Made by a program: the position numbers and the translations under genes. A stretch of 62,539 nt of DNA, taken from the NCBI GenBank assembly GCA_009782315.1, contig WRJH01000001.1, positions 1-62,539 on the forward strand, read 5' to 3'. Numbering within the stretch: position 1 is the stretch's first letter; each line of letters begins with the position of its first letter. The notes beneath the pieces are model-generated. The model was not told the origin of the DNA and ran no database searches. It saw nothing but the letters and a program-made list of their open reading frames with translations. Origin of the DNA: Alphaproteobacteria bacterium. Its GTDB lineage: Bacteria; Pseudomonadota; Alphaproteobacteria; Rs-D84. This document shows, in pieces, positions 35,043-57,524 of the stretch.

Positions 35043-35055
35043 TTTTGCTCCTTTC

Positions 35056-36661: not shown

Positions 36662-36791
36662 AGCTCATATGGGTGCAATATGTTGCGCCCCTACAATTTT
36701 ACTATTGACCTGGCATGCCGTTTTGGGCAATAATTAACCATGGTCTTAACTGACGGGCGCCGCCCGTCGTGCAATTGTAGGGTTGCCTGTA

Positions 36792-39788: not shown

Positions 39789-40724
39789 TTAAATTTTAAA
39801 TTCCGTTTTTGCATTAATCATTCGCGCGGCACCGCGCGGGCGCAATGCAATCGGCGTCATTCGGAGCGCGCCCGCAACCGCGTCCAGGCCGTCGTCGCGA
39901 TTAACCGTCGCCGCGGGCGACCAGTCCGCCATTTCATCAAATAAACCCGTTTCGCAGACGCGTTCATGCGCATATAATCGTCCGGTGCCCAACAGCGGTT
40001 CTATGGCGTCCAGTATGCGCGTTTCCTTTTTCGCGCTGTTTATAATTTTCCGTATGACCAATGGCTGGCCCCGCGCAATCGACGCGCCCCGTAAAATTTC
40101 AGGTAACGCGTTGCCGATACCATTGACCTCGATTGCAATGTGCCGCAATCCAAAGGCAGCCATGAAATCCAAAACCTGGTCGCATTGCGTGGCAAACGGA
40201 TGCGGGTCGTCCGGGGCCGCCGCCAGATATTTTATGTCGTGTATAAAAGCCGCCCGCGTTTTATCATCGCGCAGGACAAGCGCGATTACGGAACCGTCCG
40301 CGCCGCGCCGCGCCGAAGATGGGTCCCAATAGACCGCATAGCCTGTTATTGATAAATTGCTCCCCCCATCGGGGGGAGCCGAAAGACACAAAGTGTCTTT
40401 CGGTGGGGGGCAAAAAAACTCTTCGCTTATCCCCCCACCGGCGCTGGCGCGCCGACTCCCCCCAAGGGGGGAGTAATTTAATTTTGCGGCGCGCAAATCC
40501 AAATCGCCGTTATAAAATTTTATCGCGTCGGGGTCCAGGCGGGATTTTTCTTCGGATATATATTCCAACATCATCTGGGCGGAAAAATGCCGCGGGCCGA
40601 CGGTTTGGCGAATCTGGTCTATTTTTTCGGGCGGAAAAACCGCAGGCCATGCGGGCGCACCGCCCGCGTCCATTATGGGCATGCGCAAAACGCGGTACCC
40701 GCGCAAAAATGGTGGTGTGTTCAT
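39789..40724 (-). pseudogene. terL: phage terminase large subunit, C-terminal (nuclease) half only
   Basis: YWDPS..GADGSVIALV, HIAIEVNGIG and NRDDGLDAVAGA resemble the RNase H-like nuclease motifs of TerL. There is no ATPase domain here. The complementary N-half is at 56578-57174. Confidence 0.7.
40355..40479. repeat. R1 multi-hairpin element, copy B (inside the terminase C-half ORF, inverted relative to copy A)
   Basis: Its reverse complement has the same five modules as copy A. It is translated in frame as NYSPLGGSRRASAGGGISEEFFCPPPKDTLCLSAPPDGGSNLS. Confidence 0.85.
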
Positions 40725-40750
40725 GATGTGTGATAAATGCTGGTTAGAAA

Positions 40751-40773
40751 CAAAAATCCCGCCAAATGGCGGG
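40751..40773 (-). terminator. intrinsic terminator after the RloB-like gene
   Basis: On the minus strand, CCCGCC-ATTT-GGCGGG followed by ATTTTTG. Confidence 0.55.
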
Positions 40774-40789
40774 CAAGTACAGATTAGTA

Positions 40790-41428
40790 TTAATTCATGT
40801 TTGATATCTCGCGTAGACGGATGACTAATTTGTGTACCAATGTTTTTGGATTATCAATTTTTGTCGAATTGCAAAATCCCACCAAAGCTTTCGAATTTTT
40901 TATAGCTGTATCAGTTTGTTCTTTTATTTTTGCGTGAATACCCTTGGTGTTTTTTGAGTATGCTTTAAACAAATTAACATCCACTTTTATTTTTTTTAGG
41001 TCTTTCACAAGTTCGTTTGGACTGATATATGACTTTGTAGTATAGTTAAAATGCAGCATATACCACAACTCAAAAGATATATTTGAATAAATGGCTTCTA
41101 TTATTATGCGCGTACGGTTTTCTTTTTGCAATCTTTTAATTTTCAGTACGGCATCGTCGAATTTTTCATGTTTATCTCTGTCGAAAACACAATATATTTC
41201 ATCATAATTGTCGATTTCTTTTTCCGCTCTATCTGCTATTTCCAATGGTGTGGAAGCGTCGTGAATTATCTTTGCGCCAAGCTTGTAAGCTTTGCAAAAA
41301 TCTTCAAGGTAAAATTTTCCAGACTTTTTATCTTCTGTTAGAAGCAGAAGAACAGGTTTTGCCTTTGATGTGTTTTCAGGGCGCGTGAAATCGGTCTGTA
41401 TTCTGTTATTTTTTGCTGACATAAACAT
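40790..41428 (-). CDS. RloB/AbiLii-family protein
   Basis: 212 aa. Pattern ...LLLTEDKKSGKFYLE...D..D.IYCVFDRD...F..A.........I..A.SN.SFELW..LHF... matches what I recall of the RloB (Toprim-like) family. Overlaps the 3' end of the ATPase gene. Confidence 0.6.
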   Translation of the reverse strand: MFMSAKNNRIQTDFTRPENTSKAKPVLLLLTEDKKSGKFYLEDFCKAYKLGAKIIHDASTPLEIADRAEKEIDNYDEIYCVFDRDKHEKFDDAVLKIKRLQKENRTRIIIEAIYSNISFELWYMLHFNYTTKSYISPNELVKDLKKIKVDVNLFKAYSKNTKGIHAKIKEQTDTAIKNSKALVGFCNSTKIDNPKTLVHKLVIRLREISNMN

Positions 41429-42659
41429 CTCCTATGTTGGGCAACCCGCCATAGCTACCTTTTTCATATCTTCGTCTGAGAGATATTTTGTCGTTCCTAT
41501 TTTCTTTTTCCAGAACCGAATACAATTCAGAAGAAAATCCATTTTTCCTCTCTATTATATAAAGTTCTTCACGCGAGTGGGTTTCCCAAACTGTCGTATC
41601 ATGGGTCGTATACACTAATTGGGCATTTTTCCTGTTTATATTTTTATCTGTAAACAAGCTTTCGATGTACTCCAGCTCTTTATAATGCAGACTTTTATTC
41701 ATTTCATCAATGAACAATACTTTTCCATTATCCAGAACGTCACACAACGGGCCGGCCAAAGCAAATAAAACTTTTGTCCCATCTGATGCTGTATTATCGA
41801 AATCAAGAGTGATTATTTTTCCGTCTTCCGATTTGTGCATAGATTTTTTTGTAAAGAAATCGTGATTTAAATTGTTCTCTTTTAAAAATTTCATAAATTT
41901 TGGATCAAGCTCTTTATCTTCCCTTTTGTTGATTATCATACCATTAATGCCAACGTCAGCCGAGTCCATAAAATTAAGGATTCTTTTATTGTAATTATCA
42001 TTGCTGAATTGTTTGCAAGTGTACGAATCTGAAAGAAATTCGGGGCTATCCAAAACCCGCATATCTTTGGAAAGATATTTCACTATTTCAGACAGTTCTT
42101 TTTGATTTTTTAAGGTTGCCGCAACCGAAAGAAACAAAGAATTTTTGCGAGTTTCTTTGAACCATGATTTATCAAAATCCGGTATAAACTTTTTGTTTGC
42201 TTCCCATTTATCTTTTTTATTATCTTCTTTCCGTATGAACCAAGTATCAACAGTTTTATTGCCCTTTTGGGTTACAAACAACCATTCTTCGATAATTTCT
42301 GTTTTTGTGGTTGCAAAACCGTACTGATACAGATTGCCATTAATTATGAATACAATTTCAAATTCCGAAGGTTTTTTATCCAATCCTTTCTTTAATAAGT
42401 ACGGATGAATATTTGGAATTTCTTCATCTATTTTGGCACTGTGTGATTCGATAATAATGTCGCCCATGTTATCGAGTGCTTTCAGTAAATTACTTTTCCC
42501 TGATGCATTAGGACCAACTATAACAACCCTGTTCAGTAGGGATGGAACGACAGGAACCCCGGTATCAAAAGCATGTTCAGAGCCTTTTTTCGCTACCAGT
42601 GAAAGAGTTTGTTTATCTTTAAAAGATTTATAATTGGAAACAGAGAAGTTAACTAGCAT
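41406..42659 (-). CDS. AAA/ABC-type ATPase (AAA_21-like, AbiLi/RloA-like)
   Basis: Start at MLVNFSVSNYKSFKD. Walker A GPNASGKSN, C-terminal Walker B-like LFIDEMNKSLH and a TTHD motif. Architecture typical of ATPases paired with RloB. Confidence 0.7.
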   Translation of the reverse strand: MLVNFSVSNYKSFKDKQTLSLVAKKGSEHAFDTGVPVVPSLLNRVVIVGPNASGKSNLLKALDNMGDIIIESHSAKIDEEIPNIHPYLLKKGLDKKPSEFEIVFIINGNLYQYGFATTKTEIIEEWLFVTQKGNKTVDTWFIRKEDNKKDKWEANKKFIPDFDKSWFKETRKNSLFLSVAATLKNQKELSEIVKYLSKDMRVLDSPEFLSDSYTCKQFSNDNYNKRILNFMDSADVGINGMIINKREDKELDPKFMKFLKENNLNHDFFTKKSMHKSEDGKIITLDFDNTASDGTKVLFALAGPLCDVLDNGKVLFIDEMNKSLHYKELEYIESLFTDKNINRKNAQLVYTTHDTTVWETHSREELYIIERKNGFSSELYSVLEKENRNDKISLRRRYEKGSYGGLPNIGDVYVSKK

Positions 42660-42822
42660 TTTTTGCTCCGATTTTACAATTTTTGTAATTTTATAGGGAT
42701 TTAATAGAAAAGTCAAGATATTATGGAAGAGACTTTACATAGCACTTAAAAGGTGGTGTGTTTGGCATGTTTAACAAAATCCTTGCAAACGGGTAAATTC
42801 TGGGTTAATATTGGCCCGCCGT

Positions 42823-42898
42823 TGGGGTATAGTTCAGTCGGTAGAACACCGGACTGTTAATCCGTATGTCGCTGGTTCGAGCCCAGCTACCCCAGCCA
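42823..42898 (+). tRNA. tRNA-Asn (GTT)
   Basis: Acceptor TGGGGTA/TACCCCA, anticodon loop CTGTTAA, T-arm GGTTCGAGCCC, encoded CCA. Confidence 0.85.
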
Positions 42899-42905
42899 AA
42901 AATCA

Positions 42906-42935
42906 AAACCGTCGAAACGACGGTTTTTATTTTTG
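42906..42935 (+). terminator. intrinsic terminator after tRNA-Asn
   Basis: AAACCGTCG-AAA-CGACGGTTT followed by TTATTTTT. Confidence 0.65.
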
Positions 42936-43054
42936 CCAGGGAGTCTGGCGAGAATCCAGTTCGGCGAAAGCCGTTCTGGTTCGACAATGAGTAAGCGAGA
43001 ACGAGCAACGCGAAGTTCAAGCGCTAACGAATGCCGCGCAGCCCGAAGGGCAAG

Positions 43055-43073
43055 CGAACCCAGCTACCCCCAG
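43055..43073 (+). repeat. direct repeat of the tRNA-Asn 3' end (att-like scar)
   Basis: CGAACCCAGCTACCCCCAG compared with tRNA positions CGAGCCCAGCTACCCCAG (42879-42896). Confidence 0.55.
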
Positions 43074-43092
43074 GGTGCGTTTCCACACGCCC

Positions 43093-44703
43093 CTACATCA
43101 TATCGTCCGGAATATCATCCATTGCCGGGCCGGCGGGAATGTCCGCCGGTATCGGCGCCGAATTTGGTGCCGCAGGCGGTGGACCGTAATTGTTCCTTTG
43201 CGGCGCGTTGTACGAACCGTATGCGGAATCGTCGTCTTTGAACAATGAATATTCGCTGTGGAATTCCAATCTTATAGTGTCCGGTTTGCCATGACGGTTT
43301 TTGCCGATTATCAATTCGGCCTTGCCCCGGCATTGGTCCAGACGGCGCTTCCAATCTTCGTGTTCTTTCTGCAATTGCATATCCGACCGGCCGGAGATTT
43401 TATCCATAGGGTCGCGGCCCTGCAGATAATATTCTTCGCGATACGTGAACATGACAATGTCGGCGTCCTGTTCGATAGACCCGGATTCGCGAAGGTCCGA
43501 AAGCTGCGGCCGTTTGTCCGTACGGTCTTTGGATTCAACGTTACGCGACAACTGCGACAATGCGATGACCGGCACGTCCAATTCTTTGGCCAGCATTTTC
43601 AATCCGCGCGTGATTTCGGAAAGTTCCTGGACCCTGTTTTCATTACGCCGTCCGCCGGGCGACGTCATCAATTGCAGATAGTCGATTACGATAAGCGCAA
43701 GTCCCCCGTGTTTTCGCGCCAGGCGCCGCGCGCGAGTGCGCATCATCGGAACGCTCATGCCGGGCGTGTCGTCAAAGAACAGCGGCACGGACGAAAGCGC
43801 GTCGGAATACTGCGACATTTTAAGAAAGTCCGAATCGGTCAGGTTGCCGTTTCTCATACTGCTGGACGGGATTTCCGATTGCGACGACAGAACGCGCGCC
43901 GCCAATTGCGACGCGGACATTTCCAAAGAAAAGAACACCACGGCGCCCTTGTAATTCTTGTTCGCATTGCCGGATTTGATTGCGTTCGCCGCGCTGAACG
44001 CCATGTTAATCGCGACGGTTGTTTTACCCATCGCGGGACGGCCGGCGATTATTATCAAATCGGAATTGTGCAGGCCGCTGACCGATTTGTCCAAATCGCG
44101 GAACCCGGTGGTCAGGCCCGATAGTTTGCCGTCGGCCTTGTATGCTATTTCGGCGGCTTCCAAAGCGGCGCGAAGCGATTCGCCCAATGTCTGCGCGCCC
44201 TTGTCGACGGACGCGCCGCTGGTCGACAGGTCGAACAGTTTCTTTTCCGCATCTTCGATTTGCGACGATACGGGTTTGTCCAAATCTTCGACGAACGCGT
44301 TGTCGGTAATGCCCTGGCCGATGCCTATAAGCTCGCGCCGCATTGCATTGTCGTATACTATGCGCGCGTATTGTTCGACATTGACGACGGATGTTCCGGC
44401 GCCCGCAAGCTGTGCCAAATAGTCCGTTCCGCCGACGGATTCCAGAACGCCCTGTTGTTCCAGATAATTTTTAATCGTGATGATGTCGACCGGAAATCCC
44501 GCGGCAAACTGGCGGTCCATCAGTTTATATATTTCTTTGTGCGCGGGGTGGGTGAAATGGTCGGATTTCAAATATTCGCCGAATTTTTCCAACGCGCGGT
44601 TGTTCATCAGAACCGCAGCCAATACCGCTTGTTCGGCCTCTAGATTAGTCGGCAGCTGTTTCGGCGCAAAGTTGATGTTTTCCGTTTCCATGGCAAAAAT
44701 CAT
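43093..44703 (-). CDS. dnaB: replicative DNA helicase DnaB
   Basis: P.N.EAEQAVL N-terminus, Walker A GRPAMGKT, IVIDYLQLM, and LSQLSR, with an extra Pro-rich C-terminal tail. The start may instead be the Met at 44691. Confidence 0.92.
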   Translation of the reverse strand: MIFAMETENINFAPKQLPTNLEAEQAVLAAVLMNNRALEKFGEYLKSDHFTHPAHKEIYKLMDRQFAAGFPVDIITIKNYLEQQGVLESVGGTDYLAQLAGAGTSVVNVEQYARIVYDNAMRRELIGIGQGITDNAFVEDLDKPVSSQIEDAEKKLFDLSTSGASVDKGAQTLGESLRAALEAAEIAYKADGKLSGLTTGFRDLDKSVSGLHNSDLIIIAGRPAMGKTTVAINMAFSAANAIKSGNANKNYKGAVVFFSLEMSASQLAARVLSSQSEIPSSSMRNGNLTDSDFLKMSQYSDALSSVPLFFDDTPGMSVPMMRTRARRLARKHGGLALIVIDYLQLMTSPGGRRNENRVQELSEITRGLKMLAKELDVPVIALSQLSRNVESKDRTDKRPQLSDLRESGSIEQDADIVMFTYREEYYLQGRDPMDKISGRSDMQLQKEHEDWKRRLDQCRGKAELIIGKNRHGKPDTIRLEFHSEYSLFKDDDSAYGSYNAPQRNNYGPPPAAPNSAPIPADIPAGPAMDDIPDDMM

Positions 44704-44754
44704 ACATTAAAAAATTCGGTTTGCAACTTTTATATTTCGCTTTATAATCGGCCT

Positions 44755-46836: not shown

Positions 46837-46839
46837 TGT

Positions 46840-49449
46840 TTATGGGTTTTTATTGCAACAGGACAAACCAAGCGGCAGTTGGGCGCATGCCGGAAGCGCA
46901 AGACAGGCCGGAACACTGAACGTTCCCGCAATGTCCGCAATAATTGTATTGGCGGGTATCCCTGTTGTGGATTTGCATATGGGGCCCTCCTTTGCTCCTA
47001 TGCCGCCGGTTGTGCCATCATTACAGGGTTTGCAGGTTGTCTTTCCTTCTTCGTCTTGATATTGCTGCACCGGGCATTCGTTGCAGGACGCCTGCCCCTG
47101 TTGGTCTTGGTATGACCCGGCGGCGCAAGAATTGCAAGATGTTTGTCCCGGCTTGTCTTGGTATGATCCCGCCGGACATTTTTCGCACAATTCACCTTTT
47201 GGAGAAAAATATCCGGCGTCACAATCCACACATAAAGACTGGTCGCTATTGGGATGTTTGCCGACATCGCACTGTGTACACGACACGCTGTCTGCGGACA
47301 CGTGTCCGGTTGGGCATTTTTCCCATCTGGCGTATAATGTTCCCGTTCCGCTGGCAAACGCGGTATTTGTTGTAAATTCTCCTCCGGGGATATTTTTATT
47401 TATTACTTGTGTTCCGCCGGTGGACGCGCTGGTGTCATAATATCCTTGGAATAAATGGCCGGGCCGCGTGGGGTTGGCCGTCAGTTTTCCAATACTAGAA
47501 CCGCTGCAATTATTACTTGCAAACCAGTTTGCGTTGTATCTCTGGGATACGGATGCCGGGGTGCCGCCGGTACCCCCGTTATGGTCAAGCGTTACAGGTA
47601 CGCAATTCGCGCCCCATACTGCGGCCAAAGTAATTTCCCCGCTGAAAGCCGCCTGTGCAATGCTTTGCCCAGCATTGAAATTATGACTGCCGCTGCAAAT
47701 GCCGGGCCTTCCCCCGGAACACAACCAATTGGAGAACGCCTGGCCGGTGGGCGGCGTATAGGTATTGGCCGGCGCGTTGCAGGTGCCGCCGAAAATACAG
47801 GATGTCGGACTGGTCGGCGCGCTGCCTGTGCCCGCCGGATTGCCGGGCGCGTATCTCACGTTAAAAGTATTCGGCGTACAGGCGTTTCCATTATCGGAAC
47901 CATTTTTAGTATATCCATCGTTGCAAATGTTTATTCTGCAAAATATTGGATTATTGTTGTTCCAGTTCGGTGCGACAAAGGTTGCCGCGCCGGATTTGTT
48001 GGTGCAATCGGTGCAAGTGTTGGACGTGGTGGAATTGGCCTTTTGCGAACCCGCGGGTGTCCCGCCGGTGCATACAGAACAGCTGGTGTTAGTGTTGTTT
48101 GCGGCGTTGTAAGAGCCATCGGCACATGCCGGACACGTATTTCCGCTTTTATATCGGCCGGCGGCGCATTGGTTCACGGTGCATGTGGTGGCGCAATTTG
48201 TTTCGCAATAGGGATTCCCGCCGCCGTTTACAACGCCGCCGGTGATTTTGGTGGCGGTACAGCTGCATCTGCCGGGCGCCGCAAAATTGGCCGCGCCCTG
48301 TATATCATTCGTGTTGCATGGCCGGGTGCAATGGGTCACTTCAGACCGTCCGGTGGCACCGTTTGTATCGAAACCGGAAAGACACCAGTTGATGCCTTGG
48401 TCGGTAGAAGCGGACGGTGTAAAAGTATCGCCCGGGCACCAGTTGTTTACCGGACAAGTTACGCAAGTGCCGCTGCCCGCTGGCAGATATTGCCCGGCCG
48501 GGCAGGTGATGTTGTTTACACAGGCCTCTGTATAGTTAGTCAAATTGACCTTTCTGACTGTGTCGTGGCTGGTTACTGAAACAATTTTTGGCAAAAGACC
48601 GGGAACTTGGGCATAACCGGTTTTACATCTGTCAAGCCTGCACTTATCACTGCAACTTTTCAATTGAAATCCAAGGGTTCTGTTGTTGTAATCAGAATTG
48701 AGAGTGATATCCACGCATTCATAACATACATTGTTGCCCAATGTTGTGTCACTCTCACAGTTTATTCCGGCCAGCAGGGCATGGCCACCAAAATAGTTGA
48801 CGACAGGGTCTTGACATAAAGCTGTTCCCATAAGACGTTCGGTGACGCCATTAGTGTCAATTTCATTGCGGAATATAAATGATGCAGAGGCGCTATAATT
48901 ATTATTATTGCGTCTGTAATTTAGCACAGTATCTTCTGGTATAAGGCTGCAAATATTATACATGGTATTGGTTTCACAATTATTTTTCCTAAACTCATTA
49001 CATAATGGCGTTGCACTAGAGTTGCTTGAATGGTAAGAAGCGATGGCGCTGTTACTAAGGCATTGCGCGCATGCATTAGTCCAATCTTCGTCCCAACCGC
49101 CGTAATATCCACCAAAGTTCCAGATGCTATCATTGTTTATATTAAAATTGCACATGGTGCAATGGTTATCGACTATGCACTTGCTGAAATGGTACATACA
49201 TAGGTGTTGCTTAATAGGTACGGATTCTATATAAGTGCCATATTCGGTTTCTAACGGAATGCCATAGTCATAAAAACTGTACCTATATCCCACTTCCAAA
49301 TTATCAACATAATTGCCAGCCCCAGGGTTCCATGGACCCGCCGTTGATGTTGGGTTGGGGCCCATCGAGCATTGCGCCACCGCATCGCGCGTGCCGAAGC
49401 ACATCGCAATCAACACAATCACCGGCAAAAAGGCAAGTTTTGTTTTCAA
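46840..49449 (-). CDS. giant secreted Cys-rich protein (869 aa) with a Listeria-Bacteroides repeat and CxxCxxGxY (ephrin-receptor/GCC2_GCC3-like) modules
   Basis: Signal peptide MKTKLAFLPVIVLIAMCFGTRDAVA. VTLDHNGGTGG...RPGHLFQGYYDT...GGTQV...LYARW. C-terminal CEKCPAGSYQDKPGQTSCNSCAAGSYQDQQGQASCNECPVQQYQDEEGKTTCKPC. Confidence 0.7.
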   Translation of the reverse strand: MKTKLAFLPVIVLIAMCFGTRDAVAQCSMGPNPTSTAGPWNPGAGNYVDNLEVGYRYSFYDYGIPLETEYGTYIESVPIKQHLCMYHFSKCIVDNHCTMCNFNINNDSIWNFGGYYGGWDEDWTNACAQCLSNSAIASYHSSNSSATPLCNEFRKNNCETNTMYNICSLIPEDTVLNYRRNNNNYSASASFIFRNEIDTNGVTERLMGTALCQDPVVNYFGGHALLAGINCESDTTLGNNVCYECVDITLNSDYNNRTLGFQLKSCSDKCRLDRCKTGYAQVPGLLPKIVSVTSHDTVRKVNLTNYTEACVNNITCPAGQYLPAGSGTCVTCPVNNWCPGDTFTPSASTDQGINWCLSGFDTNGATGRSEVTHCTRPCNTNDIQGAANFAAPGRCSCTATKITGGVVNGGGNPYCETNCATTCTVNQCAAGRYKSGNTCPACADGSYNAANNTNTSCSVCTGGTPAGSQKANSTTSNTCTDCTNKSGAATFVAPNWNNNNPIFCRINICNDGYTKNGSDNGNACTPNTFNVRYAPGNPAGTGSAPTSPTSCIFGGTCNAPANTYTPPTGQAFSNWLCSGGRPGICSGSHNFNAGQSIAQAAFSGEITLAAVWGANCVPVTLDHNGGTGGTPASVSQRYNANWFASNNCSGSSIGKLTANPTRPGHLFQGYYDTSASTGGTQVINKNIPGGEFTTNTAFASGTGTLYARWEKCPTGHVSADSVSCTQCDVGKHPNSDQSLCVDCDAGYFSPKGELCEKCPAGSYQDKPGQTSCNSCAAGSYQDQQGQASCNECPVQQYQDEEGKTTCKPCNDGTTGGIGAKEGPICKSTTGIPANTIIADIAGTFSVPACLALPACAQLPLGLSCCNKNP

Positions 49450-49547
49450 ACGCCCCCCGTTATCAATTATACAGCACGATTATTGCAAAATAAAACAGGG
49501 TAATGCAATGGTAAAATAATCTTTCTTTGCATTCCCGTCCCATCCAC

Positions 49548-49704
49548 GTCATTGCGAGAAGCGCAAGTCCGACGTGGAACGTCGGCGCGCGCGCCGAAGC
49601 AATCCAGTAAATAGAGTGCGCCAGCAAAGCTGGCGCGACAATATGCTGGATTGCCGCGTCGCGTTTGCAGACACTTCGTGTCAGACAAACGCTCCTCGCA
49701 ATGA
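49548..49704. repeat. R2 palindromic element, copy 2
   Basis: GTCATTGCGAG...GAAGCAATCCAG...CTGGATTGCCGCGTCGCGTTTGCAGAC...GTCAGACAAACGCTCCTCGCAATGAC. Same orientation as copy 1. Confidence 0.8.
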
Positions 49705-49784
49705 CGGACTGGGTATGGGCGGATATATCCGCCCATACATTAATATTGCCAAACCGTAAATTTTGTTGTATATATCATTCCGCG

Positions 49785-52106
49785 ATGAAGAAATTCCATG
49801 CCGCTTATCTTGCCCTGCTGGTCACGGCGCTTTTGACTTTTTCGGCTTTTGCCGAAGTTGTCAAAATCATATCCGTTTCCGGAAACCGCCGAATGGACGC
49901 GGAATCCGTGCGCATCATGACGGATGTAAAGGTTGGCGACAATCTGGACACCGCGGGACTTAACCGCGTCGCCAAAAAATTACAGGCCACCGGTCTTTTT
50001 TCCAAATCTTCCGTCGAGATGTCCGGCGGCGTTTTGAATATCGCCGTTACGGAATCGCCCGTCGTCAATATGGTGACGATAGAAGGCAACGACGAAATAT
50101 CCACCGACGATTTGAAAAAGGAAATCCGCCTGCGCGAACGGTCCGCGTACGACGAATCCGCCATCGGCGCGGATGTTCAGCGCATGCTGACCGTGTATCA
50201 GCGCAAAGGTTTTTTCGGAACGAAAATAGAGCCTAAACGCATCGAACTGGACGGCGGCCGCGTGAACATTGTGTATGAAATCACCGAAGGCCACCCGACG
50301 CGAATCAAAGATATAAAATTCACCGGAAATAAAAAATTCAGTTCGCGCACCCTGCGTTCCGAAGTATTGTCGCGCGAATACGCTTGGTGGAAATTCATGG
50401 CGTCTTTCGACAATTACGACGAAGACCGCATACAATACGACCAACAGCTGTTGCGCCAATTCTATCTGCGCAACGGATTCGTCGATTTTCAAATCAAATC
50501 AGCAAACGGCGTGTTTTCCCCCGACCGCAAATATTTTTCCGTAACGTTCGATATTCACGAAGGAAATCGTTACAAGTTCGGAAAGATGTCCGTCGAAAAT
50601 CCCTTTCCGGATGTCGACGACAAAAAACTGATGGACCTGATTAAAATGGACCCGGGCGATTATTACAACATCGACCTGGTTGACGGCACCATCAGCGCTT
50701 TGCGCAACGCTGTCGCGGAACAGGGATACGCATTCATAAACATTGACGTGATTCCGACCAAAAACGACGAAGCCCGCACCATAGATTTGGTGTTCCAGAT
50801 TCAAAAGACAAACCGCATATATATAAACAAAGTGTCCATTCTGGGCAATGTGCGGACTTTCGATTCGGTTATAGAGCACTTGCTGCAAGTCCGTTCGGGC
50901 GACCCCTTTAACCGCCAGGAAATAGAAAGCGGCCGCCAGCGGTTAATGCGCACGCGATACTTTAAATCCGTCGACATGGTGCCGACGCGCATCGAAGATT
51001 CCAACCTGATGAACCTGGACGTAAAGGTCGAAGAACAGCCGACAGGCGAACTTTCTGGGGGACTTGGCTGGTCCAACATCAACGGGTTCATGCTGGACGC
51101 CGGCATCACGGAAAACAATTTCATGGGCCGCGGCCAGACGGTGCAATTGCGCGGGTCGCTGGCGCAATACCAGAAACAGGCGATGTTCAGCTTTACCGAA
51201 CCGTATCTGTTCGGGCGCGCGCTGTCCGCCGGATTCGACGTCAATTATACCATGTACAACTATTCGTCTTTGGGGTCTCTTGGGTACGACCGCGACAGCT
51301 TTATGGTGGCGGGCCGTTTGGGCTGGAAACTGACCGACAACTGGACCCAGATGGTGCGCTTGTCCGCGGCTTTCGACCAGAATCTTGACCTGCACGCGAC
51401 CGGCGGCCAGTGGCAGTCTGTGAACCTTTACACGCTTGGCACGAATTTCCGTTATCACAATCTGGATACGGATTTCGCGCAACAGACGCATGACGGCGTC
51501 ATCGGCAATATTGGTGTGGCGTATACTGGATTCGGAAGCACGGAAACATTCATGCGGTACGATGCGTCCATTACCGGATTGTATAAATTCCTGGACAACC
51601 GGTGGCAGTTGAAATCCGAACTGGGCGCCGGATTGTTACAGCCCTTGACGGATGACGAATATATTTCGCGTATGTACCGTTACTTTCTGGGCGGGGAATC
51701 TTTGCGCGGGTTCAACGTCGCGGGCGTTGGTTCGCGCAACTGGGCCTTTCGGAATTATGCGACCGGCGGCCTGTGGAAAATCAACGGCACGACCCAGCTG
51801 AATTTCCCGGTGTTTATTCCCGATGAATACCAGGTAAAGGGATTCGTGTTCACCGATTACGGCATATTGGGCCGCCCGCCGAAAAAAGAGTTTTCATATA
51901 AGCCGGCCAGCGCTGGATTTACATGTCCGGATTGGAATCCCGGATGCGAAAATTTCATAGACCAGGATTGGCGCGTGTCGTACGGTATCGGCGTATATTG
52001 GAATACTCCGATGGGGCCGATGAATTTCTCTTGGGGCTGGCCGCTTTTATCCAAAGAATACGACCGGGAACAGAAATTCCTGCTTTCTTTCGCGACACAG
52101 TTTTAG
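49785..52106 (+). CDS. bamA: outer membrane protein assembly factor BamA
   Basis: Start at MKKFHAAYLALLVTALLTFSAFA. POTRA repeats (I..I.V.GN.R), a C-terminal beta-barrel and a terminal aromatic residue (...SFATQF). Confidence 0.9.
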   Translation: MKKFHAAYLALLVTALLTFSAFAEVVKIISVSGNRRMDAESVRIMTDVKVGDNLDTAGLNRVAKKLQATGLFSKSSVEMSGGVLNIAVTESPVVNMVTIEGNDEISTDDLKKEIRLRERSAYDESAIGADVQRMLTVYQRKGFFGTKIEPKRIELDGGRVNIVYEITEGHPTRIKDIKFTGNKKFSSRTLRSEVLSREYAWWKFMASFDNYDEDRIQYDQQLLRQFYLRNGFVDFQIKSANGVFSPDRKYFSVTFDIHEGNRYKFGKMSVENPFPDVDDKKLMDLIKMDPGDYYNIDLVDGTISALRNAVAEQGYAFINIDVIPTKNDEARTIDLVFQIQKTNRIYINKVSILGNVRTFDSVIEHLLQVRSGDPFNRQEIESGRQRLMRTRYFKSVDMVPTRIEDSNLMNLDVKVEEQPTGELSGGLGWSNINGFMLDAGITENNFMGRGQTVQLRGSLAQYQKQAMFSFTEPYLFGRALSAGFDVNYTMYNYSSLGSLGYDRDSFMVAGRLGWKLTDNWTQMVRLSAAFDQNLDLHATGGQWQSVNLYTLGTNFRYHNLDTDFAQQTHDGVIGNIGVAYTGFGSTETFMRYDASITGLYKFLDNRWQLKSELGAGLLQPLTDDEYISRMYRYFLGGESLRGFNVAGVGSRNWAFRNYATGGLWKINGTTQLNFPVFIPDEYQVKGFVFTDYGILGRPPKKEFSYKPASAGFTCPDWNPGCENFIDQDWRVSYGIGVYWNTPMGPMNFSWGWPLLSKEYDREQKFLLSFATQF

Positions 52107-52159
52107 TTGACACGCCGCCCCGGAATTCCCTATAATCAAAGAAATATGAAAGGGAGATT

Positions 52160-52309
52160 ATGATGAAGAAATTCGCATACCTATTTTTTGCTATGCTGGT
52201 GCTTGCCGGATGCGGCCAGGTTTACGACCGCGTGCCGATTGGAATCGGATTCGATAACGATGAATTAAAACTGTCGCCGTGCGCATGCATCCGGGTATGG
52301 CAAGCCTGA
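52160..52309 (+). CDS. small lipoprotein (49 aa), VirB7/ComB7-like candidate
   Basis: Hand translation MMKKFAYLFFAMLVLAGCGQVYDRVPIGIGFDNDELKLSPCACIRVWQA. AGGGAG SD and lipobox LAG-C. ELKLSPC resembles the ..KKSPC.. motif recalled from ComB7/VirB7-type lipoproteins. Sits directly upstream of VirB8 paralogs. Confidence 0.45.
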   Translation: MMKKFAYLFFAMLVLAGCGQVYDRVPIGIGFDNDELKLSPCACIRVWQA

Positions 52310-52318
52310 CGGCTTTGC

Positions 52319-52394
52319 AGGTAAGAGGTAATAGGTAATAGGTAATAGGTAGAAGTTTTCATACCTTGTACCTTATACCTTTTACCTTATACCT
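52319..52394. repeat. inverted heptamer array (AGGTAWW family)
   Basis: AGGTAAGAGGTAATAGGTAATAGGTAATAGGTAGAAG-TTTT-CATACCTTGTACCTTATACCTTTTACCTTATACCT. Same unit type as 16569-16645. Confidence 0.8.
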
Positions 52395-52418
52395 GCTTGC
52401 GAGCAAAGCGAGCAAGCA

Positions 52419-53093
52419 ATGGATTATCCAAACAATTTCGATACACCGCCGTTTCCTGAATCGCGCAAGATTGCCTTGTCGCGGTTCGCGGCCGTATGGT
52501 ATTTGGTTTTGTTTTTCGTAATAGCGTCGCTGTGCGGTCTGGTTGTCTGGACGGTGCATTCGGTGCGGCTTTCCCCTTATATTATTTCCATCGACAATGT
52601 TACCGGCGAATGGCGGGTGATAAGCGAAAAATCAAAATCGGACGACGCGGTTTCAAAAGAAATTTCGATGCAGGAATCCGTCGTGTGGCGCTTTGCGACC
52701 GAATGGTTCAGGGTGACGGAGAGCGCCGCCCGGAACGCCGCCAATTGGTGCGAATGCGAGGTGGCATCGTGCGCCGGCACCGCGTGCTTTATCTGCTGCG
52801 CTTCGGACGCTTTGCTTTACAAAAGTTTTTCCGAAAGCGTTCTGCCGGTTTACAAGGACATGGCGGAAGGGGGTGAAACGCAAAGGCTGCGCCGGGATTC
52901 GATTACCATATCGCCGGTATCCGGACCGGACGGTCGCGGCGGAATGTGGCGCGCCCAGGCGGTTTTGGAACAGTCCGCCGGCCCCGATAGAAATATGGAA
53001 ATATACGTCCGCGTGCAGCGGAACGAAAGCGTATATCCGCTGACGCTGGGGTATTATGTCGCGGATTTTAACTGGTATGTGACGGGAATATGA
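52419..53093 (+). CDS. VirB8-family paralog
   Basis: 224 aa. N-terminal cytoplasmic tail, one TM, RLSPYIISIDNVTGEWRVI (VirB8 PY...VD..TG pattern), SMQESVVWRFATEWFRV. Confidence 0.6.
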   Translation: MDYPNNFDTPPFPESRKIALSRFAAVWYLVLFFVIASLCGLVVWTVHSVRLSPYIISIDNVTGEWRVISEKSKSDDAVSKEISMQESVVWRFATEWFRVTESAARNAANWCECEVASCAGTACFICCASDALLYKSFSESVLPVYKDMAEGGETQRLRRDSITISPVSGPDGRGGMWRAQAVLEQSAGPDRNMEIYVRVQRNESVYPLTLGYYVADFNWYVTGI

Positions 53094-53746
53094 GAAAGCT
53101 TTTATTCTTTTTATCGTCTTTGACTATTATGGCGCTTTCCGTCGGGGCGTTGTATTTCAGCGGCCGCCTGTTCGACGCGTCCGCAAAGATAGACATAGAA
53201 CCGTATATATTCCAATCGGCGGAACATTCCAGCCGGCGTTTGGGCGGGCCGGTGTCTTTGTCCGCGATGGAGCGGTCGAATTCGACGTATGTCCAGGAAC
53301 GATTAATCGCGGCGTTCGTTCGCGAATATTTCGGGGTGATTCCGTACGACGGCGATCTGGACCGCCGCGCCGGACGGAACAGTCCGCTGGCCGCGATGAC
53401 GGTTGGGTCGCGGACGCCGGTGTTCGAAAATTGGAAGGCGAACGTAAAACCGGAATTGGCCGCCTTGGCGGAAAAAATGAAATTGCGCCGCGTGAATGTG
53501 CATCGGGGGATGCCGCAAAGACAGGGCGAATATTATGTTGTGCGATTTGATTTGATTACTTATAATCCGAATGATATGGCCGCCGCGCCCGAAATATTGC
53601 GGGACCGGGAAATACTGATTCGTCTGCGGTACGAGGCGGGCATGCGGACGGAATTGGGCGGACAACCTTTCGATTCGCGGCGCGCGCTTGAATCCGGCGT
53701 CCCTCCGATGATAGTGTTCAAGTTCGTGGTGGACGAGGTAAGATAG
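53090..53746 (+). CDS. VirB8-family paralog (divergent)
   Basis: 218 aa. ATGA overlap with the previous gene. N-terminal TM, IEPYIF, VQERLIAAFVREYFGV. Confidence 0.5.
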   Translation: MRKLLFFLSSLTIMALSVGALYFSGRLFDASAKIDIEPYIFQSAEHSSRRLGGPVSLSAMERSNSTYVQERLIAAFVREYFGVIPYDGDLDRRAGRNSPLAAMTVGSRTPVFENWKANVKPELAALAEKMKLRRVNVHRGMPQRQGEYYVVRFDLITYNPNDMAAAPEILRDREILIRLRYEAGMRTELGGQPFDSRRALESGVPPMIVFKFVVDEVR

Positions 53747-53767
53747 ATGGTTGCGCCTTTGGCGCAA

Positions 53768-53872
53768 CAGAGCATAGATAATAGAGCATAGATAAGTGTT
53801 TATATTAAAAAATAATTTTATAAAATCATTCGGGCGTTTATCTATGCTCTATGCTCTATGCTCTATGCTCTG
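53768..53872. repeat. inverted heptamer array (AGAGCAT family)
   Basis: CAGAGCATAGATAATAGAGCATAGATAAG ... TTATCTATGCTCTATGCTCTATGCTCTATGCTCTG. The right arm encodes LSMLYALCSML of the following ORF. Confidence 0.85.
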
Positions 53873-54689
53873 CGTTTGCGCAGCAAACGCAGATTTCGAA
53901 CCTTTTTTTGACGATGCGGTGTACGATGATTCAACCGGGTTCGGCGGTTTTGACAATTTCGATAATTTCGATGTTTTAGCGAATAATGTTATCGACGAAG
54001 TCATAACGGACGCAGGGGGCGTGGATTTGTCCGTTGCCAAACCGGTGTATTTGAACAAAGACTCCGTTTTCGCGGGCGTTATGCAGTTCGACATTGCGGG
54101 CGTAATGCTTGGCATGGATTTCGAAAGCGTTTATAACCAATTTTTCAGGGCGAAATCGCTTTACGCGCCCAGAAGTAAAAATTCCATAATATATTCAGTG
54201 TCGCGGGATTGGAAAAACAATCTGGATTACGAATGCCGCCTGCAAAAAATATTCGCGCCGTCGTCGCTTGCCAACTGCATAAATTCTTTGGCAAAGGCGC
54301 GCGGACTGCTGTACGCGTCCGAAATGCATCTGGTGCGCGAATCGACGGGTGAAACGATAGCCGTTTATTTTACGTCCAACATGACGGGCAACGCCGTATG
54401 GCGCGTGGAATACAACAACGACGTCGACGAGATAAAGGGCGACGATCCGAAATTCGCGGACCAGCGGGAAAAGAAAATCCTGGCGTTCTGGCAGGGCGTC
54501 CTGGACAAATACGGCGCGCCGAATTCCGATGGCGACAAATGGATTTCGTCAGACAATACTTTCGACCCGATGATGGTCGCATATTACGGCCGTCTGGAAT
54601 TGATAAACGCCGGATTGAACGCGTGGGACGCGGCCGAAAATATCCGGCATTCGCGCGAAAATTTCAAGGCGAAACCGTATTTCTTTTAA
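53796..54689 (+). CDS. secreted hypothetical protein (297 aa)
   Basis: GTG start inferred. Signal peptide (M)FILKNNFIKSFGRLSMLYALCSMLCVCAANA/D. Confidence 0.5.
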   Translation: MFILKNNFIKSFGRLSMLYALCSMLCVCAANADFEPFFDDAVYDDSTGFGGFDNFDNFDVLANNVIDEVITDAGGVDLSVAKPVYLNKDSVFAGVMQFDIAGVMLGMDFESVYNQFFRAKSLYAPRSKNSIIYSVSRDWKNNLDYECRLQKIFAPSSLANCINSLAKARGLLYASEMHLVRESTGETIAVYFTSNMTGNAVWRVEYNNDVDEIKGDDPKFADQREKKILAFWQGVLDKYGAPNSDGDKWISSDNTFDPMMVAYYGRLELINAGLNAWDAAENIRHSRENFKAKPYFF

Positions 54690-54691
54690 CC

Positions 54692-54819
54692 AGTTATCCG
54701 TAACCCGTTATCCGTTTTCCGTAATTCATACCGTTTATGTTCCGTGCCATAGGTTTGTTTGCGCACACAAGTTGAACATTAAAGAATTACGGACTACGGG
54801 TTACGGATAACGGTCTACG
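54692..54819. repeat. inverted heptamer array (CCGTNNN family)
   Basis: AGTTATCCGTAACCCGTTATCCGTTTTCCGTAATT ... AATTACGGACTACGGGTTACGGATAACGGTCTACG, followed by a separate perfect hairpin TTTTTCTTGC-GCAA-GCAAGAAAAA (54821-54846). Confidence 0.85.
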
Positions 54820-54877
54820 ATTTTTCTTGCGCAAGCAAGAAAAAGACTCTATACTTTTGTCAATATAACCAAGAGGA

Positions 54878-55903
54878 ATGGCCATGGCTTGGGAAGAAAT
54901 AATTTTTCCGAACAATATCAGAAATATAAGACTGGGCAAGGGCATGCGGATGACCGCGGTCGCGAAAAAGTCCGGCCTGTCGCTGTCCGCAATGTCAAAG
55001 GTGGAAAAAGGCGTGCGCCGCCTGAATCAAAAACAGCTGTTGACGCTGTGCGGAATTCTGGATTGCAAACTGTCCGATATGTTTATAAAGGCCAATGACG
55101 AGGTTGCGGATTCATGGCAATCGGAAATGCAGCGCCGTCTGGAAGACAATGAAACCGGCGGTCTTAAAATATTCGGCGCCGGCGTGCGCGTTCTGCGCAA
55201 AAAGGCCGGCAAGACAATCGCCCAGGCCGCGAAAGACGCGAAAATGACGCTGTCGGTGTATCATAAAATCGAAGTGGGCCAGCGCGAACTGTACGAAGAC
55301 GAAATCGCGGACCTGGCAAAGGCTTTGGGCAAAACGCCCGACAGCATGTACAAAGCCATCGCGGAACTTTTTGAAAAAGGCGAACTGGCGAAACAAATCA
55401 GCAAGGTCGGCGAAAAGGTGCGCAGCGTCCTGGTGCCCAGCTCTTCGTCCGCAGGAACAGACCTTTCGGGCGAAATTTACGGCGCGAATATTTACGATTC
55501 CGCGCGCAAGAAACTGGTGCCGGTTTTCGGCGTTCCGGGCGACAAGGATTTGGTGTTCAAAAAATCCGACGAACAGATGATAGTGTCGCCGATGAATTTG
55601 GAAAGCAACACCGGGATATACGCGGTCGTCCCGAACGCGAAACGCATCGGCAATATGTTTCCGGCGCGCTCGTACATGTTTGTCGATCCGGACGCGATCG
55701 CCCAGCCGGGCGATTTGGCCGTCGCGCTTTCCGAAGATTTCGACAAACTGGAACCGGGATTGAAAACGCACGCGCGCATAGTCATGGTCCGCGAAGACGC
55801 GCGCGGCAAACTGTACGGCCATATGGTGGAACCGGATGAAAAAATCACGGTGTCCAACACGGGCGGCCGCCTGCACAAAATCGTGCAGATTGTAATGGAA
55901 TAA
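54878..55903 (+). CDS. tandem XRE-family HTH protein with C-terminal LexA/CI-like (S24-fold) domain
   Basis: Two HTH_XRE-like segments (IRNIRLGKGMRMTAVAKKSGLSLSAMSKVEKG, VRVLRKKAGKTIAQAAKDAKMTLSVYHKIEVG). The C-terminal region resembles the S24 fold, but the GxSM motif reads IGNMFP. Confidence 0.5.
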   Translation: MAMAWEEIIFPNNIRNIRLGKGMRMTAVAKKSGLSLSAMSKVEKGVRRLNQKQLLTLCGILDCKLSDMFIKANDEVADSWQSEMQRRLEDNETGGLKIFGAGVRVLRKKAGKTIAQAAKDAKMTLSVYHKIEVGQRELYEDEIADLAKALGKTPDSMYKAIAELFEKGELAKQISKVGEKVRSVLVPSSSSAGTDLSGEIYGANIYDSARKKLVPVFGVPGDKDLVFKKSDEQMIVSPMNLESNTGIYAVVPNAKRIGNMFPARSYMFVDPDAIAQPGDLAVALSEDFDKLEPGLKTHARIVMVREDARGKLYGHMVEPDEKITVSNTGGRLHKIVQIVME

Positions 55904-55926
55904 TTGTTTACGGGAAAGAGAGAGCA

Positions 55927-56574
55927 ATGAAAGAAAAACCATCGGTAACGGCGCAAAGATTGATGAACCTGTACCGCCAGGCGCATGCCATTCATGGCGG
56001 GTGGCGCGCCGTAAACCCTGTGTTCATGCAAGAATCTGATTCCGCGGTTCTGGAAGAAATCAGAAAGCTGCCGACCGGCGAAAAACTTGCCGAACATATT
56101 TCAGAGCTGCAAAGCGGCCGCGGGGACCGCGCGTCGATTTCGCCGGAACTGATGCCGTACGGCGGCCTGATGGAAACTCATTTCGCCGAAGTGGCCAAAG
56201 ACGCGAAGTTTTCGAACGAAGACATGGATTCGTTGGAACGGGAACTGGTCGATTTCGAACCGACGGCGGAACATTTGCAAAGAATCGAATCGCTGCCCTA
56301 TGTGCGCCAGTTTGGCGACAGATGGCTGGCCGGCGTCCGCGCCGCGATTTCCGGGCGGCCGAATCTGGTCGCGCGTTGGAAAACGGTGTACGCCGCGTCG
56401 CGCGCGTTCGACCTGTGGACCCGCGCCGACAACATATTGTCGTGGCAGCCGACGGAAAAAACCAGGGCAGAGGTCCAGGCGGACCTTCCCGAATACGAAA
56501 CCTATCTTCCGATGTTCGGCGACGCGGGCCAGGAACTGCTTGTAAAACTGCGCGCATTCGTTAGCAGTATATAA
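55927..56574 (+). CDS. hypothetical protein (215 aa)
   Basis: ORF following the HTH gene, convergent with the terminase N-half (stops 3 nt apart). No family recognised. Confidence 0.4.
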   Translation: MKEKPSVTAQRLMNLYRQAHAIHGGWRAVNPVFMQESDSAVLEEIRKLPTGEKLAEHISELQSGRGDRASISPELMPYGGLMETHFAEVAKDAKFSNEDMDSLERELVDFEPTAEHLQRIESLPYVRQFGDRWLAGVRAAISGRPNLVARWKTVYAASRAFDLWTRADNILSWQPTEKTRAEVQADLPEYETYLPMFGDAGQELLVKLRAFVSSI

Positions 56575-56577
56575 AAT

Positions 56578-57174
56578 CTATACCCTGTAAATCGTATCGC
56601 GTGCGTGCGGCGTGCCGATGTAAATCATCGTACCGCGCGGCGACAGGATGAAATCCAGTTCGCGCAAACGTTCGCGCAGATTTTCCCGTTTTTGTTTTGT
56701 ATTGCTGGTGTTTGGCACTTCGACGTCGTCGCAGATTATCAAATCGCTGCGCAATCCCGTGACATTGCCGTGAATGCCCTGGCAGATTACGGATGGTTCG
56801 CGAATACCTATGGGTCGCTGGATTGTGATTTTGTGGCTGCCCCATTCTTTTTTGACGGCGGGCGGCATGTCCGAACACGCCGGGTGGTTTTCCAAGATAT
56901 GCTTTATATGTGAAACCATTCGCGACGCCAGTTTTGTTTCCGCAGACAGAATCAGAATCCGCGATTCGGGGCGCATCCGCAGAACCCATGCGGCGAAAAC
57001 CCCGACGACGGACGATTTCCCGGAATGCCGGAACGAAAGCAACAACGCCCGGCGTGGGTCCGTGCGCAAAGATTCAACCAAGAATTCCAGAATTTTTTTA
57101 TGATGCGCGGGCGTGGACAGTCCGATAATTTCGTTCCAATCATCCAAGAATTTCAAAGCGGAATTATACGACAT
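56578..57174 (-). pseudogene. terL: phage terminase large subunit, N-terminal (ATPase) half only
   Basis: Walker A-like FRHSGKSS, Walker B LIICDDVE and IYIGTPH coupling motif. The ORF stops right after the ATPase domain. The nuclease half is at 39789-40724. Confidence 0.7.
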
Positions 57175-57524
57175 TATCCGATAAGTTTTGAGAATTGCGA
57201 ATTGAACAATTTGACCAGGTTTGTTTTCTTCGGTTTTTTCAAATTCGACATTTTGTTCATGTTCGCGATTCGCTTTTCATCGAACGGCTGTTCGGTTTCT
57301 TCACGCATGCGTTTCAACACGGCCTCTTCGGTCATGCCTTTGCCGCCCATTCCGGCCGCGCCGTATTTTGCGCGCTGCGCGGCCAGCGCTTTTTTAACCA
57401 GATTGGTTTTTGTCGCCTCGTCGGCCGCGATTTGGTCCAGAATAATCCGGCGTTCTTTTTTCAGTTCTTTGCCGGCCTTTCTGTCGGAAAGCATGTTTTC
57501 TATTTCATTTGCTATTTGTCCCAT
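57174..57524 (-). CDS. small phage protein, candidate small terminase subunit
   Basis: 116 aa, basic and coiled-coil. AAGGAG SD. Its stop overlaps the terminase start as TAATG. The call is from position only. Confidence 0.35.
   Translation of the reverse strand: MGQIANEIENMLSDRKAGKELKKERRIILDQIAADEATKTNLVKKALAAQRAKYGAAGMGGKGMTEEAVLKRMREETEQPFDEKRIANMNKMSNLKKPKKTNLVKLFNSQFSKLIG

Follow-up and report, generated by a model that had tools for sequence, protein, structure and literature searches.

Why should the gene for a phage DNA-packaging enzyme lie in two pieces with essential host genes between them? This question is raised by a 62,539-bp stretch of DNA from an alphaproteobacterium of the order Rs-D84 (contig WRJH01000001.1 of assembly GCA_009782315.1; positions 1–62,539, hereafter the window), in which two open reading frames (ORFs) on the minus strand, 15,853 bp apart, each encode a part of the large terminase subunit (TerL). 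A preliminary description of the window had attributed this arrangement to a chromosomal rearrangement that cut a prophage or gene transfer agent (GTA)-like cluster within one gene, or to a chimeric assembly. Our analysis indicates instead that the split is old and clade-wide, and that the two ORFs, here named TerL-N and TerL-C, probably represent an anciently split, still functional T7-type two-gene terminase in a vertically inherited, domesticated T7-like cluster of Rs-D84. The two ORFs and a repeat element within the second are as follows.

56578–57174, minus strand: TerL-N, ATPase-core piece, 198 aa, with Walker A (FRHSGKSS), Walker B (LIICDDVE) and motif III (IYIGTPH)
39789–40724, minus strand: TerL-C, predicted rest of the ATPase module plus RNase H-like nuclease, 311 aa, with D134, E199 and D277/D278/D281
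40355–40490, strand-less: R1, palindromic repeat element lying in frame within a variable loop of TerL-C, an insert relative to homologues (predicted local distance difference test score, pLDDT, <50)

The two ORFs match consecutive parts of the terminase family phrog_38 in PHROGs (TerL-N, positions 276–458, E 5e-37; TerL-C, positions 468–706, E 6e-36), and TerL-C also matches the Pfam family Terminase-T7_RNaseH-like (PF22530). When aligned to an intact 498-aa relative (P0243), TerL-N corresponds to residues 9–196 and TerL-C to residues 206–498; the overlap is zero, and about 9 loop residues are covered by neither half. The nearest intact TerLs, which are 450–510 aa long and 45–51% identical over the N half, carry both halves contiguously. 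Phage TerL records were matched very unevenly, 2,507 by the N half and just 9 by the C half, and the top phage matches are common to both halves, among them the TerL of Acinetobacter phage TPWB-05, to which the N half matches best. The shared top matches and the contiguous alignment on intact TerLs place the halves in one terminase lineage rather than making them two remnants. The alignment to intact TerLs that the preliminary description had proposed therefore bears out its view of two complementary, non-overlapping pieces of one gene, and locates the breakpoint in the loop after motif III. Its R1 insert is also real: further copies of the palindromic repeat lie at 36533–36661 and 34–82, giving at least three in the window, and the length of the loop that carries the insert varies among relatives as well. 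R1 is a G/C-hairpin-rich palindrome resembling a miniature inverted-repeat transposable element or a repetitive extragenic palindromic sequence.

Among the features that define a T7-type TerL, the additional strand catalytic glutamate-type ATPase (Walker A, Walker B with the catalytic Glu, and motif III) and the C-terminal RNase H-like nuclease with its conserved acidic triad are both present. The joining of the two on one polypeptide is not: they are encoded by two ORFs, with a conserved stop in the first and a conserved start in the second. The cut lies about 10 residues after motif III (IGTPH), in a surface loop, and at the same site in all loci examined. TerL-N ends in ...IYIGTPHxxDTIY[KR]x followed by 0–10 residues in all loci, with tails of up to about 40 residues in a few, and TerL-C starts with M, 1–12 residues and STPFLRGYxxLKIPI. 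The N half corresponds to residues 49–211 of 586 in T7-type TerL structures (8dgc_E, 4bij; E 5e-22); therefore, the cut falls just past motif III, within the ATPase module.

TerL-C carries about 70–120 residues ahead of the nuclease. In its AlphaFold2 model (mean pLDDT 81), the RNase H-like fold begins at about residue 122, and two short strands plus helices of lower confidence make up roughly the first 68 residues. In a Foldseek search with this model, the whole chain (302 columns, E 6e-12) aligned only to the full-length PhiV-1 TerL (8dgc_E), while nuclease-only structures aligned over 166–221 columns and RuvC and resolvase folds were matched besides the terminase nucleases. Because the whole chain aligns only to the full-length PhiV-1 TerL, TerL-C is predicted to contribute the end of the ATPase module in addition to the nuclease. 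It was the structure search alone that succeeded here, a profile of the C half having found no match among PDB sequences; Pfam matches in intact relatives and in an in-silico N + C fusion were too weak to define domain boundaries. PhiV-1 TerL, which aligns with both halves, and T7 gp19 (4bij) share the motifs and the nuclease triad, but are single chains of about 480–590 aa, whereas the enzyme here is two chains, divided within the ATPase module. The earlier proposal of a clean ATPase/nuclease split thus holds for the complementarity of the halves but not for the position of the cut, which is not at a domain boundary.

To what extent is this arrangement shared by related bacteria? Protein searches covering 5.8 billion proteins yielded 849 matches with the N half and 759 with the C half, and the best 120 of each were inspected. 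These comprise, for the N half, at least 120 distinct 90%-identity clusters of stand-alone proteins (189–216 aa, 72–84% identical) from Alphaproteobacteria, 'Rickettsiales' and Ca. Enterousia metagenome-assembled genomes (MAGs) and, for the C half, at least 120 clusters of stand-alone proteins, most of 256–313 aa and a few of up to 402 aa. A scan of one genome per GTDB species revealed 237 stretches encoding N-half relatives. Of these, 80 loci were retrieved; they come from the gut MAGs of termites, ruminants, birds, mice and rabbits, and all belong to Alphaproteobacteria/Enterousia except for a few contigs that carry the label Muribaculaceae. Their assignment to the order Rs-D84 follows PMC12306168, with the name Ca. 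Enterousia where given. Every related genome examined shows the TerL split at this loop.

Approximately 70 loci have an identical gene order with host genes on both flanks. The first part consists of scaffold, (histone-like gene), capsid, a 79-aa ORF, gp11, gp12, a 116-aa ORF, (short fibre) and TerL-N. Three genes on the opposite strand follow, encoding an all-alpha protein (x215), a helix-turn-helix (HTH) protein and the replicative helicase DnaB. Then come TerL-C, portal, a Bbp19-like ORF and a 98-aa ORF, and finally, again on the opposite strand, yraN ... bamA. The gap from the TerL-N stop to TerL-C measures 3.28–3.50 kb in 67 of 70 loci (outliers of 3.7, 4.6 and 9.2 kb), and most loci have portal immediately after TerL-C. 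The comparison of synteny with related genomes, another of the checks that had been proposed, thus recovered a canonical arrangement of about 3.3 kb from which the order in the window is a later change. Given the same cut in every relative examined, the nearly constant gap and the strong purifying selection described below, the gene is very unlikely to have been broken by a rearrangement in this genome.

Both halves look functional, to judge from intact copies, invariant catalytic motifs and low ratios of non-synonymous to synonymous substitution rates (dN/dS). No internal stop was found in the 81 N-half and 67 C-half sequences aligned; FRHSGKS, CDD.EVPNT and IGTPH are invariant in the 81 N halves, and the nuclease residues D134, E199, D277, D278 and D281 are invariant in relatives. 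By the Nei-Gojobori method (pairs with dS 0.1–1.5), dN/dS is 0.09 for TerL-N and 0.17 for TerL-C, within the range of the cluster (0.06–0.23): portal 0.06, capsid 0.08, gp11 0.19, gp12 0.20 and the 116-aa basic ORF 0.23. The intervening HTH gene and dnaB show 0.12 and 0.08, respectively. In the sublineage of the window itself, where dS is near saturation, the values are 0.06–0.11 for TerL-N and 0.18 for TerL-C. Pairwise distances of the phage-derived genes track those of dnaB (Spearman 0.6–0.77, 57 loci), and this correlation, together with the fixed chromosomal position, points to vertical inheritance of the cluster. Members of the order Rs-D84 have genomes mostly <1 Mb and are thought to be partner-dependent (PMC12306168); therefore, the keeping of about 12 kb of phage genes implies selection. 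Taken with the uniform position of the cut, these data argue that the split is old and clade-wide and is not recent damage.

If the two-gene terminase is functional, TerL-N and TerL-C would be translated separately, and the chains would reassemble non-covalently, with the N-terminal strands and helices of TerL-C completing the ATPase fold of TerL-N. The product would be a two-chain packaging ATPase-nuclease, and the cluster would make GTA-like particles, not a replicating phage. Several points weigh against this interpretation. The model has only moderate confidence over about the first 60 residues of TerL-C, and their assignment to the ATPase module derives from homology to intact TerLs, not from a model of the complex. 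The TerL-C of the window bears the R1 insert, though in a loop that is variable in relatives too. The short tail-fibre gene present in 59 loci is absent from the window, and neither a small terminase nor the T7 internal-core proteins (gp14–16) were recognised in the cluster. The dN/dS values are approximate, as dS is close to saturation in many pairs. Finally, chain association, particle production and DNA transfer are steps that we infer from the genes. Should the chains cooperate, a viral packaging ATPase would remain functional despite a cut within its own ATPase fold, and the two-chain TerL would offer structural biologists a naturally split system in which the coupling of ATP hydrolysis to the nuclease/translocation module could be examined.

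The same cut occurs in a second lineage. In two strains (L155 and L156, one of them on a 1.47-Mb contig), this loop is again the site of the cut; the resulting pair of adjacent ORFs shares an 8-nt overlap (ATGGGTGA), and a GGAGGAG motif lies upstream (L156:10001-11441 and L155:10001-11480). This locus stands alone amid the host genes hemCD, ftsY, miaB and dapF, with no structural genes nearby. The two strains were considered as a sister group of the Rs-D84 clade, but a neighbour-joining tree, whose deep branches are poorly separated, gave no such affinity. Since the tree does not place them with the Rs-D84 clade, this site was probably split at least twice. The recurrence of the split at this loop therefore suggests that the site tolerates a two-chain enzyme. 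Lone TerL loci without nearby structural genes also occur in other bacteria. One of these (L084:10001-11518) is an intact TerL gene of the same family (505 aa) within ordinary chromosomal surroundings, flanked by small ORFs of no assigned function and with no prophage.

What kind of element do the two halves belong to? The genes visible in the window run from 62514 downward on the minus strand, and the short fibre is represented by the copy in the relative L019.

61933–62514, minus strand: T7-type scaffold, first visible gene of the cluster (Pfam Phage_T7_Capsid, E 6e-11; at least 57 loci)
61331–61807, minus strand: Lys/Ala/Pro-rich histone H1/Hc2-like protein with AKKPAAKK repeats (Pfam HC2, E 1e-16)
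60254–61066, minus strand: major capsid protein (Pfam Phage_capsid_2, E 4e-74)
59950–60189, minus strand: conserved 79-aa ORF between capsid and gp11 (tblastn matches in 75 loci, the 8 listed being 65–74% identical)
59411–59938, minus strand: tail tubular protein A, gp11-like (Pfam Tube, E 2e-7; phrog_394, E 9e-35)
57653–59395, minus strand: tail tubular protein B, gp12-like (phrog_376, E 1e-95)
57174–57524, minus strand: conserved 116-aa basic ORF (about 75 loci)
35106–36476, minus strand: portal, head-to-tail connector (Pfam Head-tail_con, E 1e-86)
34845–35063, minus strand: small Bbp19-like ORF downstream of portal (73% identical to an ORF of L088 with Pfam Phage_Bbp19; 62 loci)
34483–34779, minus strand: conserved 98-aa ORF at the end of the TerL-C/portal unit (tblastn matches after portal in most loci)
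L019:9487-10023: short fibre, 178 aa, T7 tail-fibre N-terminal (tail-attachment) domain only, preceding TerL-N in 59 loci

The succession scaffold, capsid, gp11, gp12, small ORF and TerL-N on one side and TerL-C and portal on the other was thus found as first described, with the addition that a surface-protein gene lies between TerL-C and portal in the window. One syntenic order in about 70 loci and one terminase lineage confirm a single T7-like, GTA-like cluster. The short-fibre gene is lacking in some termite-gut relatives as well as in the window. A Hydrolase_2 (cell-wall hydrolase) gene lies just upstream of scaffold in L019 and has homologues in 60 loci. Between scaffold and capsid, a K/A/P/V-rich histone-like ORF is present in 55 of 58 loci; it has no counterpart in the Rhodospirillum centenum prophage considered next, and may be a DNA-condensing component gained after domestication.

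The R. centenum prophage-like region (CP000613) encodes an intact TerL of 511 aa, among those nearest to the split form, whose N part is 48% identical to that of the cluster, and a capsid that is 56% identical. Its order is also similar (scaffold, which is unconfirmed, capsid, small ORF, gp11, gp12, ..., TerL, ..., Hydrolase_2), but it differs in having a single intact TerL, a tail spike and a holin and no histone-like gene. Its Hydrolase_2 endolysin and holin come after TerL, and the region is probably an ordinary prophage.

In the Rs-D84 clade, the flanks of four loci were inspected for phage life-cycle genes (L003, L019, L088 and L089); they contain no genes for an integrase, replication or an RNA polymerase and thus hold no replication, integration or lysogeny module, and the IMG/VR entries for the cluster are fragments of only 4–16 kb. 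Together with chromosome-fixed phage structural and packaging genes, vertical inheritance and purifying selection, these are features of GTAs. The cluster resembles RcGTA and BaGTA, found in the same host class, as a chromosome-fixed, vertically inherited and selected phage-derived cluster without nearby replication or integration genes. However, RcGTA is of HK97-like siphovirus origin and has a single-gene TerL, whereas this cluster, a putative producer of particles, is T7-like in its capsid, scaffold, tail tube, TerL and portal, and its terL consists of two genes with host genes between. No prohead protease or tape measure was seen in the cluster, so the HK97-like head-tail set of the RcGTA type is not present. 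The cluster is therefore likely to be comparable to a GTA, though not of the RcGTA or BaGTA kind. FpGTA of Faecalibacterium is likewise a GTA-like element of a gut bacterium, described by its authors as the first with podovirus-like morphology (PMC12946183); it belongs to another phylum, is set beside the cluster here by description, and the passages of that report on which we draw mention no split terminase. If the particle system is real, the maintenance of a T7-like domesticated kind in genomes of <1 Mb points to an important role, possibly in gene exchange among partner-dependent gut symbionts. Existing annotations present these loci as short proviruses or hypothetical proteins, and they would be mistaken for broken prophages.

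The alternative that survives best, while still unlikely, is that the halves have been co-opted for other jobs, with TerL-C serving for example as a RuvC-like host nuclease, or that the particle is not for DNA transfer but acts as a compartment, in adhesion or killing, or in a link to type IV secretion. The matches of TerL-C to RuvC and resolvase folds, the failure to recognise a small terminase or ejection-core proteins, the lone TerL loci of other bacteria and the VirB8-like genes adjoining the cluster are all compatible with such a change of function. However, both halves keep all terminase motifs, and they co-diverge and stay syntenic with the capsid, portal and tail-tube genes, the portal gene lying directly after TerL-C in most loci. 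These properties favour a working two-gene terminase.

The host genes that separate the halves are themselves conserved, and in the window they are located as follows.

55927–56574, plus strand: x215, clade-specific all-alpha protein of 215 aa, last gene of the block, convergent with TerL-N with 3 nt between the stop codons
54878–55903, plus strand: double Cro/C1-type HTH protein, candidate regulator (Pfam HTH_3 and HTH_31)
43093–44703, minus strand: dnaB, host-type replicative helicase (NCBIfam PRK09165, 608 bits against a cutoff of 540)

For x215, no match was found in Pfam, PHROGs, NCBIfam or PADLOC, and a Foldseek search of PDB and BFVD with its confident all-alpha AlphaFold2 model was likewise negative. 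In most relatives, dnaB lies head-to-head with TerL-C, whereas it is moved and inverted in the window. The ATG of TerL-C overlaps the opposite-strand ATG of dnaB in the sequence CATG in 62 of 69 distinct loci (e.g. L019:13885-13900), and in 8 example loci a GGAG/GGGG Shine-Dalgarno-like motif precedes the start codon of TerL-C by about 8 nt. At the other junction, the stop codons of TerL-N and x215 interlock (YTAR) in 31 of 69 loci and are within about 12 nt in most others. The CATG and YTAR junctions leave no intergenic DNA for promoters.

These junctions lead to a wider but only tentative proposal, which we consider doubtful as a whole: that the cluster represents a new T7-like-podovirus class of GTA in Rs-D84 with an obligate two-chain terminase, dnaB-wired expression and histone-aided condensation. 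Under this proposal, the TerL-C/portal unit and dnaB, the sole replicative helicase gene, would start back-to-back from overlapping codons, and the switching-on of particle production would antagonise dnaB through convergent or antisense transcription across the 5' ends, while the cluster-encoded histone-like protein would help to condense host DNA for packaging. An essential host operon that lies within a phage gene and interlocks with it at the start and stop codons would be a rare and testable regulatory entanglement of a domesticated virus with host replication. A search of the literature turned up neither a conserved two-gene TerL, nor a domesticated T7-like cluster in Rs-D84, nor such an interlock with dnaB.

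Could the intervening DNA instead be removed to restore one TerL, by excision, RNA splicing or split-intein trans-splicing? The halves lie on the same strand, and terminases encoded in gene pieces are known only where the pieces are rejoined. In herpesviruses, the TerL-homologue gene UL15 consists of two exons that flank the antisense genes UL16 and UL17 and are rejoined by mRNA splicing. UL15 thus resembles the present case in being cut in the ATPase region by opposite-strand genes; it differs in that the split TerL lacks any sign of splicing, with a start or stop codon belonging to each half. The second precedent is that of 'fractured genes', which have split inteins and a free-standing endonuclease; phage genes, including one T4-type terminase, are reported to lie in two pieces with a gene between and to be rejoined by the split inteins (PMC2677866). 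In that case the pieces carry split-intein halves, an N-intein of 88–105 aa and a C-intein of 33–54 aa (PMC2677866), so that at least about 90 plus 35 residues would be needed, whereas only about 2–12 non-homologous residues are found at the TerL cut, leaving no room for either.

Excision fares no better. A search for direct and inverted repeats between the 3' end of TerL-N and the 5' end of TerL-C in 69 loci and the window found none above the shuffled control. No recombinase is present in the canonical gap, which contains only dnaB, the HTH gene and x215; gap content varies between lineages, with dnaB inverted in some. Rfam searches of the window and of L019, L015, L003 and L156 detected tRNAs only and no intron models at the gathering score, and coding sequence on the opposite strand reaches both junctions. 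In addition, TerL-N ends at a conserved stop, and TerL-C has its own ATG, preceded by a Shine-Dalgarno-like motif in the loci inspected. Rejoining in any of these forms therefore has only a slim chance of being correct. The preliminary description had already argued that the intervening DNA is not an excisable element of the skin/nifD type, and the lack of a recombinase and of junction repeats above the control agrees with this.

The two-gene terminase being the preferred explanation, it remains to account for the enlarged gap in the window. The host genes first reported between the halves (dnaB, recG, bamA, tRNA-Asn, a defence islet and the VirB8-like type IV secretion gene) were all found within the 15,853 bp, and the halves do lie in the same orientation. 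The full contents are an AbiL pair, tRNA-Asn, dnaB, recG, a Cys-rich surface protein, bamA, the VirB8-like gene, two ORFs of no assigned function, the double-HTH gene and x215. The genes that the canonical gap does not contain include two of the following features; the remaining one lies on the other side of TerL-C.

40790–42716: AbiL abortive-infection pair (AbiLi E 1e-80, AbiLii E 2e-18; GC content 0.34–0.37), beside tRNA-Asn and directly upstream of TerL-C
46840–49449, minus strand: second large Cys/Thr/Ser-rich repetitive protein
36783–39767, plus strand: surface-protein gene between TerL-C and portal (994 aa, signal-peptide-like start, Cys/Thr/Ser-rich)

Relative to the canonical order, a block comprising y297, z218, the VirB8-like gene and bamA, with a surface-protein gene and recG, is placed between the HTH gene and dnaB, dnaB is inverted, and the AbiL islet and tRNA-Asn precede TerL-C. 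The AbiL pair, in the region 40790–42898 beside tRNA-Asn, looks like a recent island insertion. bamA adjoins the phage-derived cluster in most relatives; in the window, the usual contiguity of frr-uppS-cdsA-rseP-bamA is broken (29784–32900 against the bamA region at 49665–52106, about 17 kb apart), and yraN adjoins rseP-cdsA-uppS-frr. The enlargement from about 3.3 to 15.8 kb is the only lineage-specific part, and consists of secondary rearrangement and insertions in a termite-gut sublineage.

These changes, namely the bamA block moved into the gap, the inverted dnaB, the inserted AbiL and surface-protein genes and the lost tail-fibre gene, might suggest that a recent rearrangement cut a prophage or GTA cluster and left decaying terminase pseudogene fragments. 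We regard this as highly improbable, because every retrieved relative is cut at the identical loop, and the ORFs are intact, their motifs invariant and their dN/dS low (0.09–0.17, and 0.06–0.18 in the window's own lineage). An artefact of assembly or binning, with a chimeric join at a repeat, might be suspected from the R1 copies near both phage-derived blocks and from the uncultured source of the window, most likely a metagenome assembly, but is very unlikely to the point of being negligible, because the derived order is shared by independent assemblies of close relatives (L004, and L088 and L089 from another sample; L004 and L089 reproduce the order from the HTH gene through y297..bamA to recG, and L088 that from TerL-C and portal to yraN-rseP-cdsA-uppS-frr) and the split itself occurs in hundreds of contigs from many studies.

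The 994-aa ORF at 36783–39767 was considered as a tail fibre, and this was rejected. With no phage matches, a signal-peptide-like start and a high content of Cys, Thr and Ser, it resembles a surface protein of the host. Both Cys/Thr/Ser-rich repetitive proteins, which are interspersed in the cluster on opposite strands, are likely located on the cell surface. One of the two has Ephrin_rec_like repeats, and relatives carry Flg_new or Ephrin_rec_like proteins nearby.

Genes related to type IV secretion occur at two places in the window. Upstream, VirB10/TrbI-like, VirB9/CagX-like and VirB8 genes are present at 9399–14243, and the weak VirB8-like gene and two ORFs located at 52419–54689 always flank the phage-derived cluster in relatives. 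Among the retrieved loci, five contigs with the alphaproteobacterial cluster (L007, L009, L014, L018 and L022) were deposited as 'uncultured Muribaculaceae' MAGs, labels that are probably binning or labelling errors.

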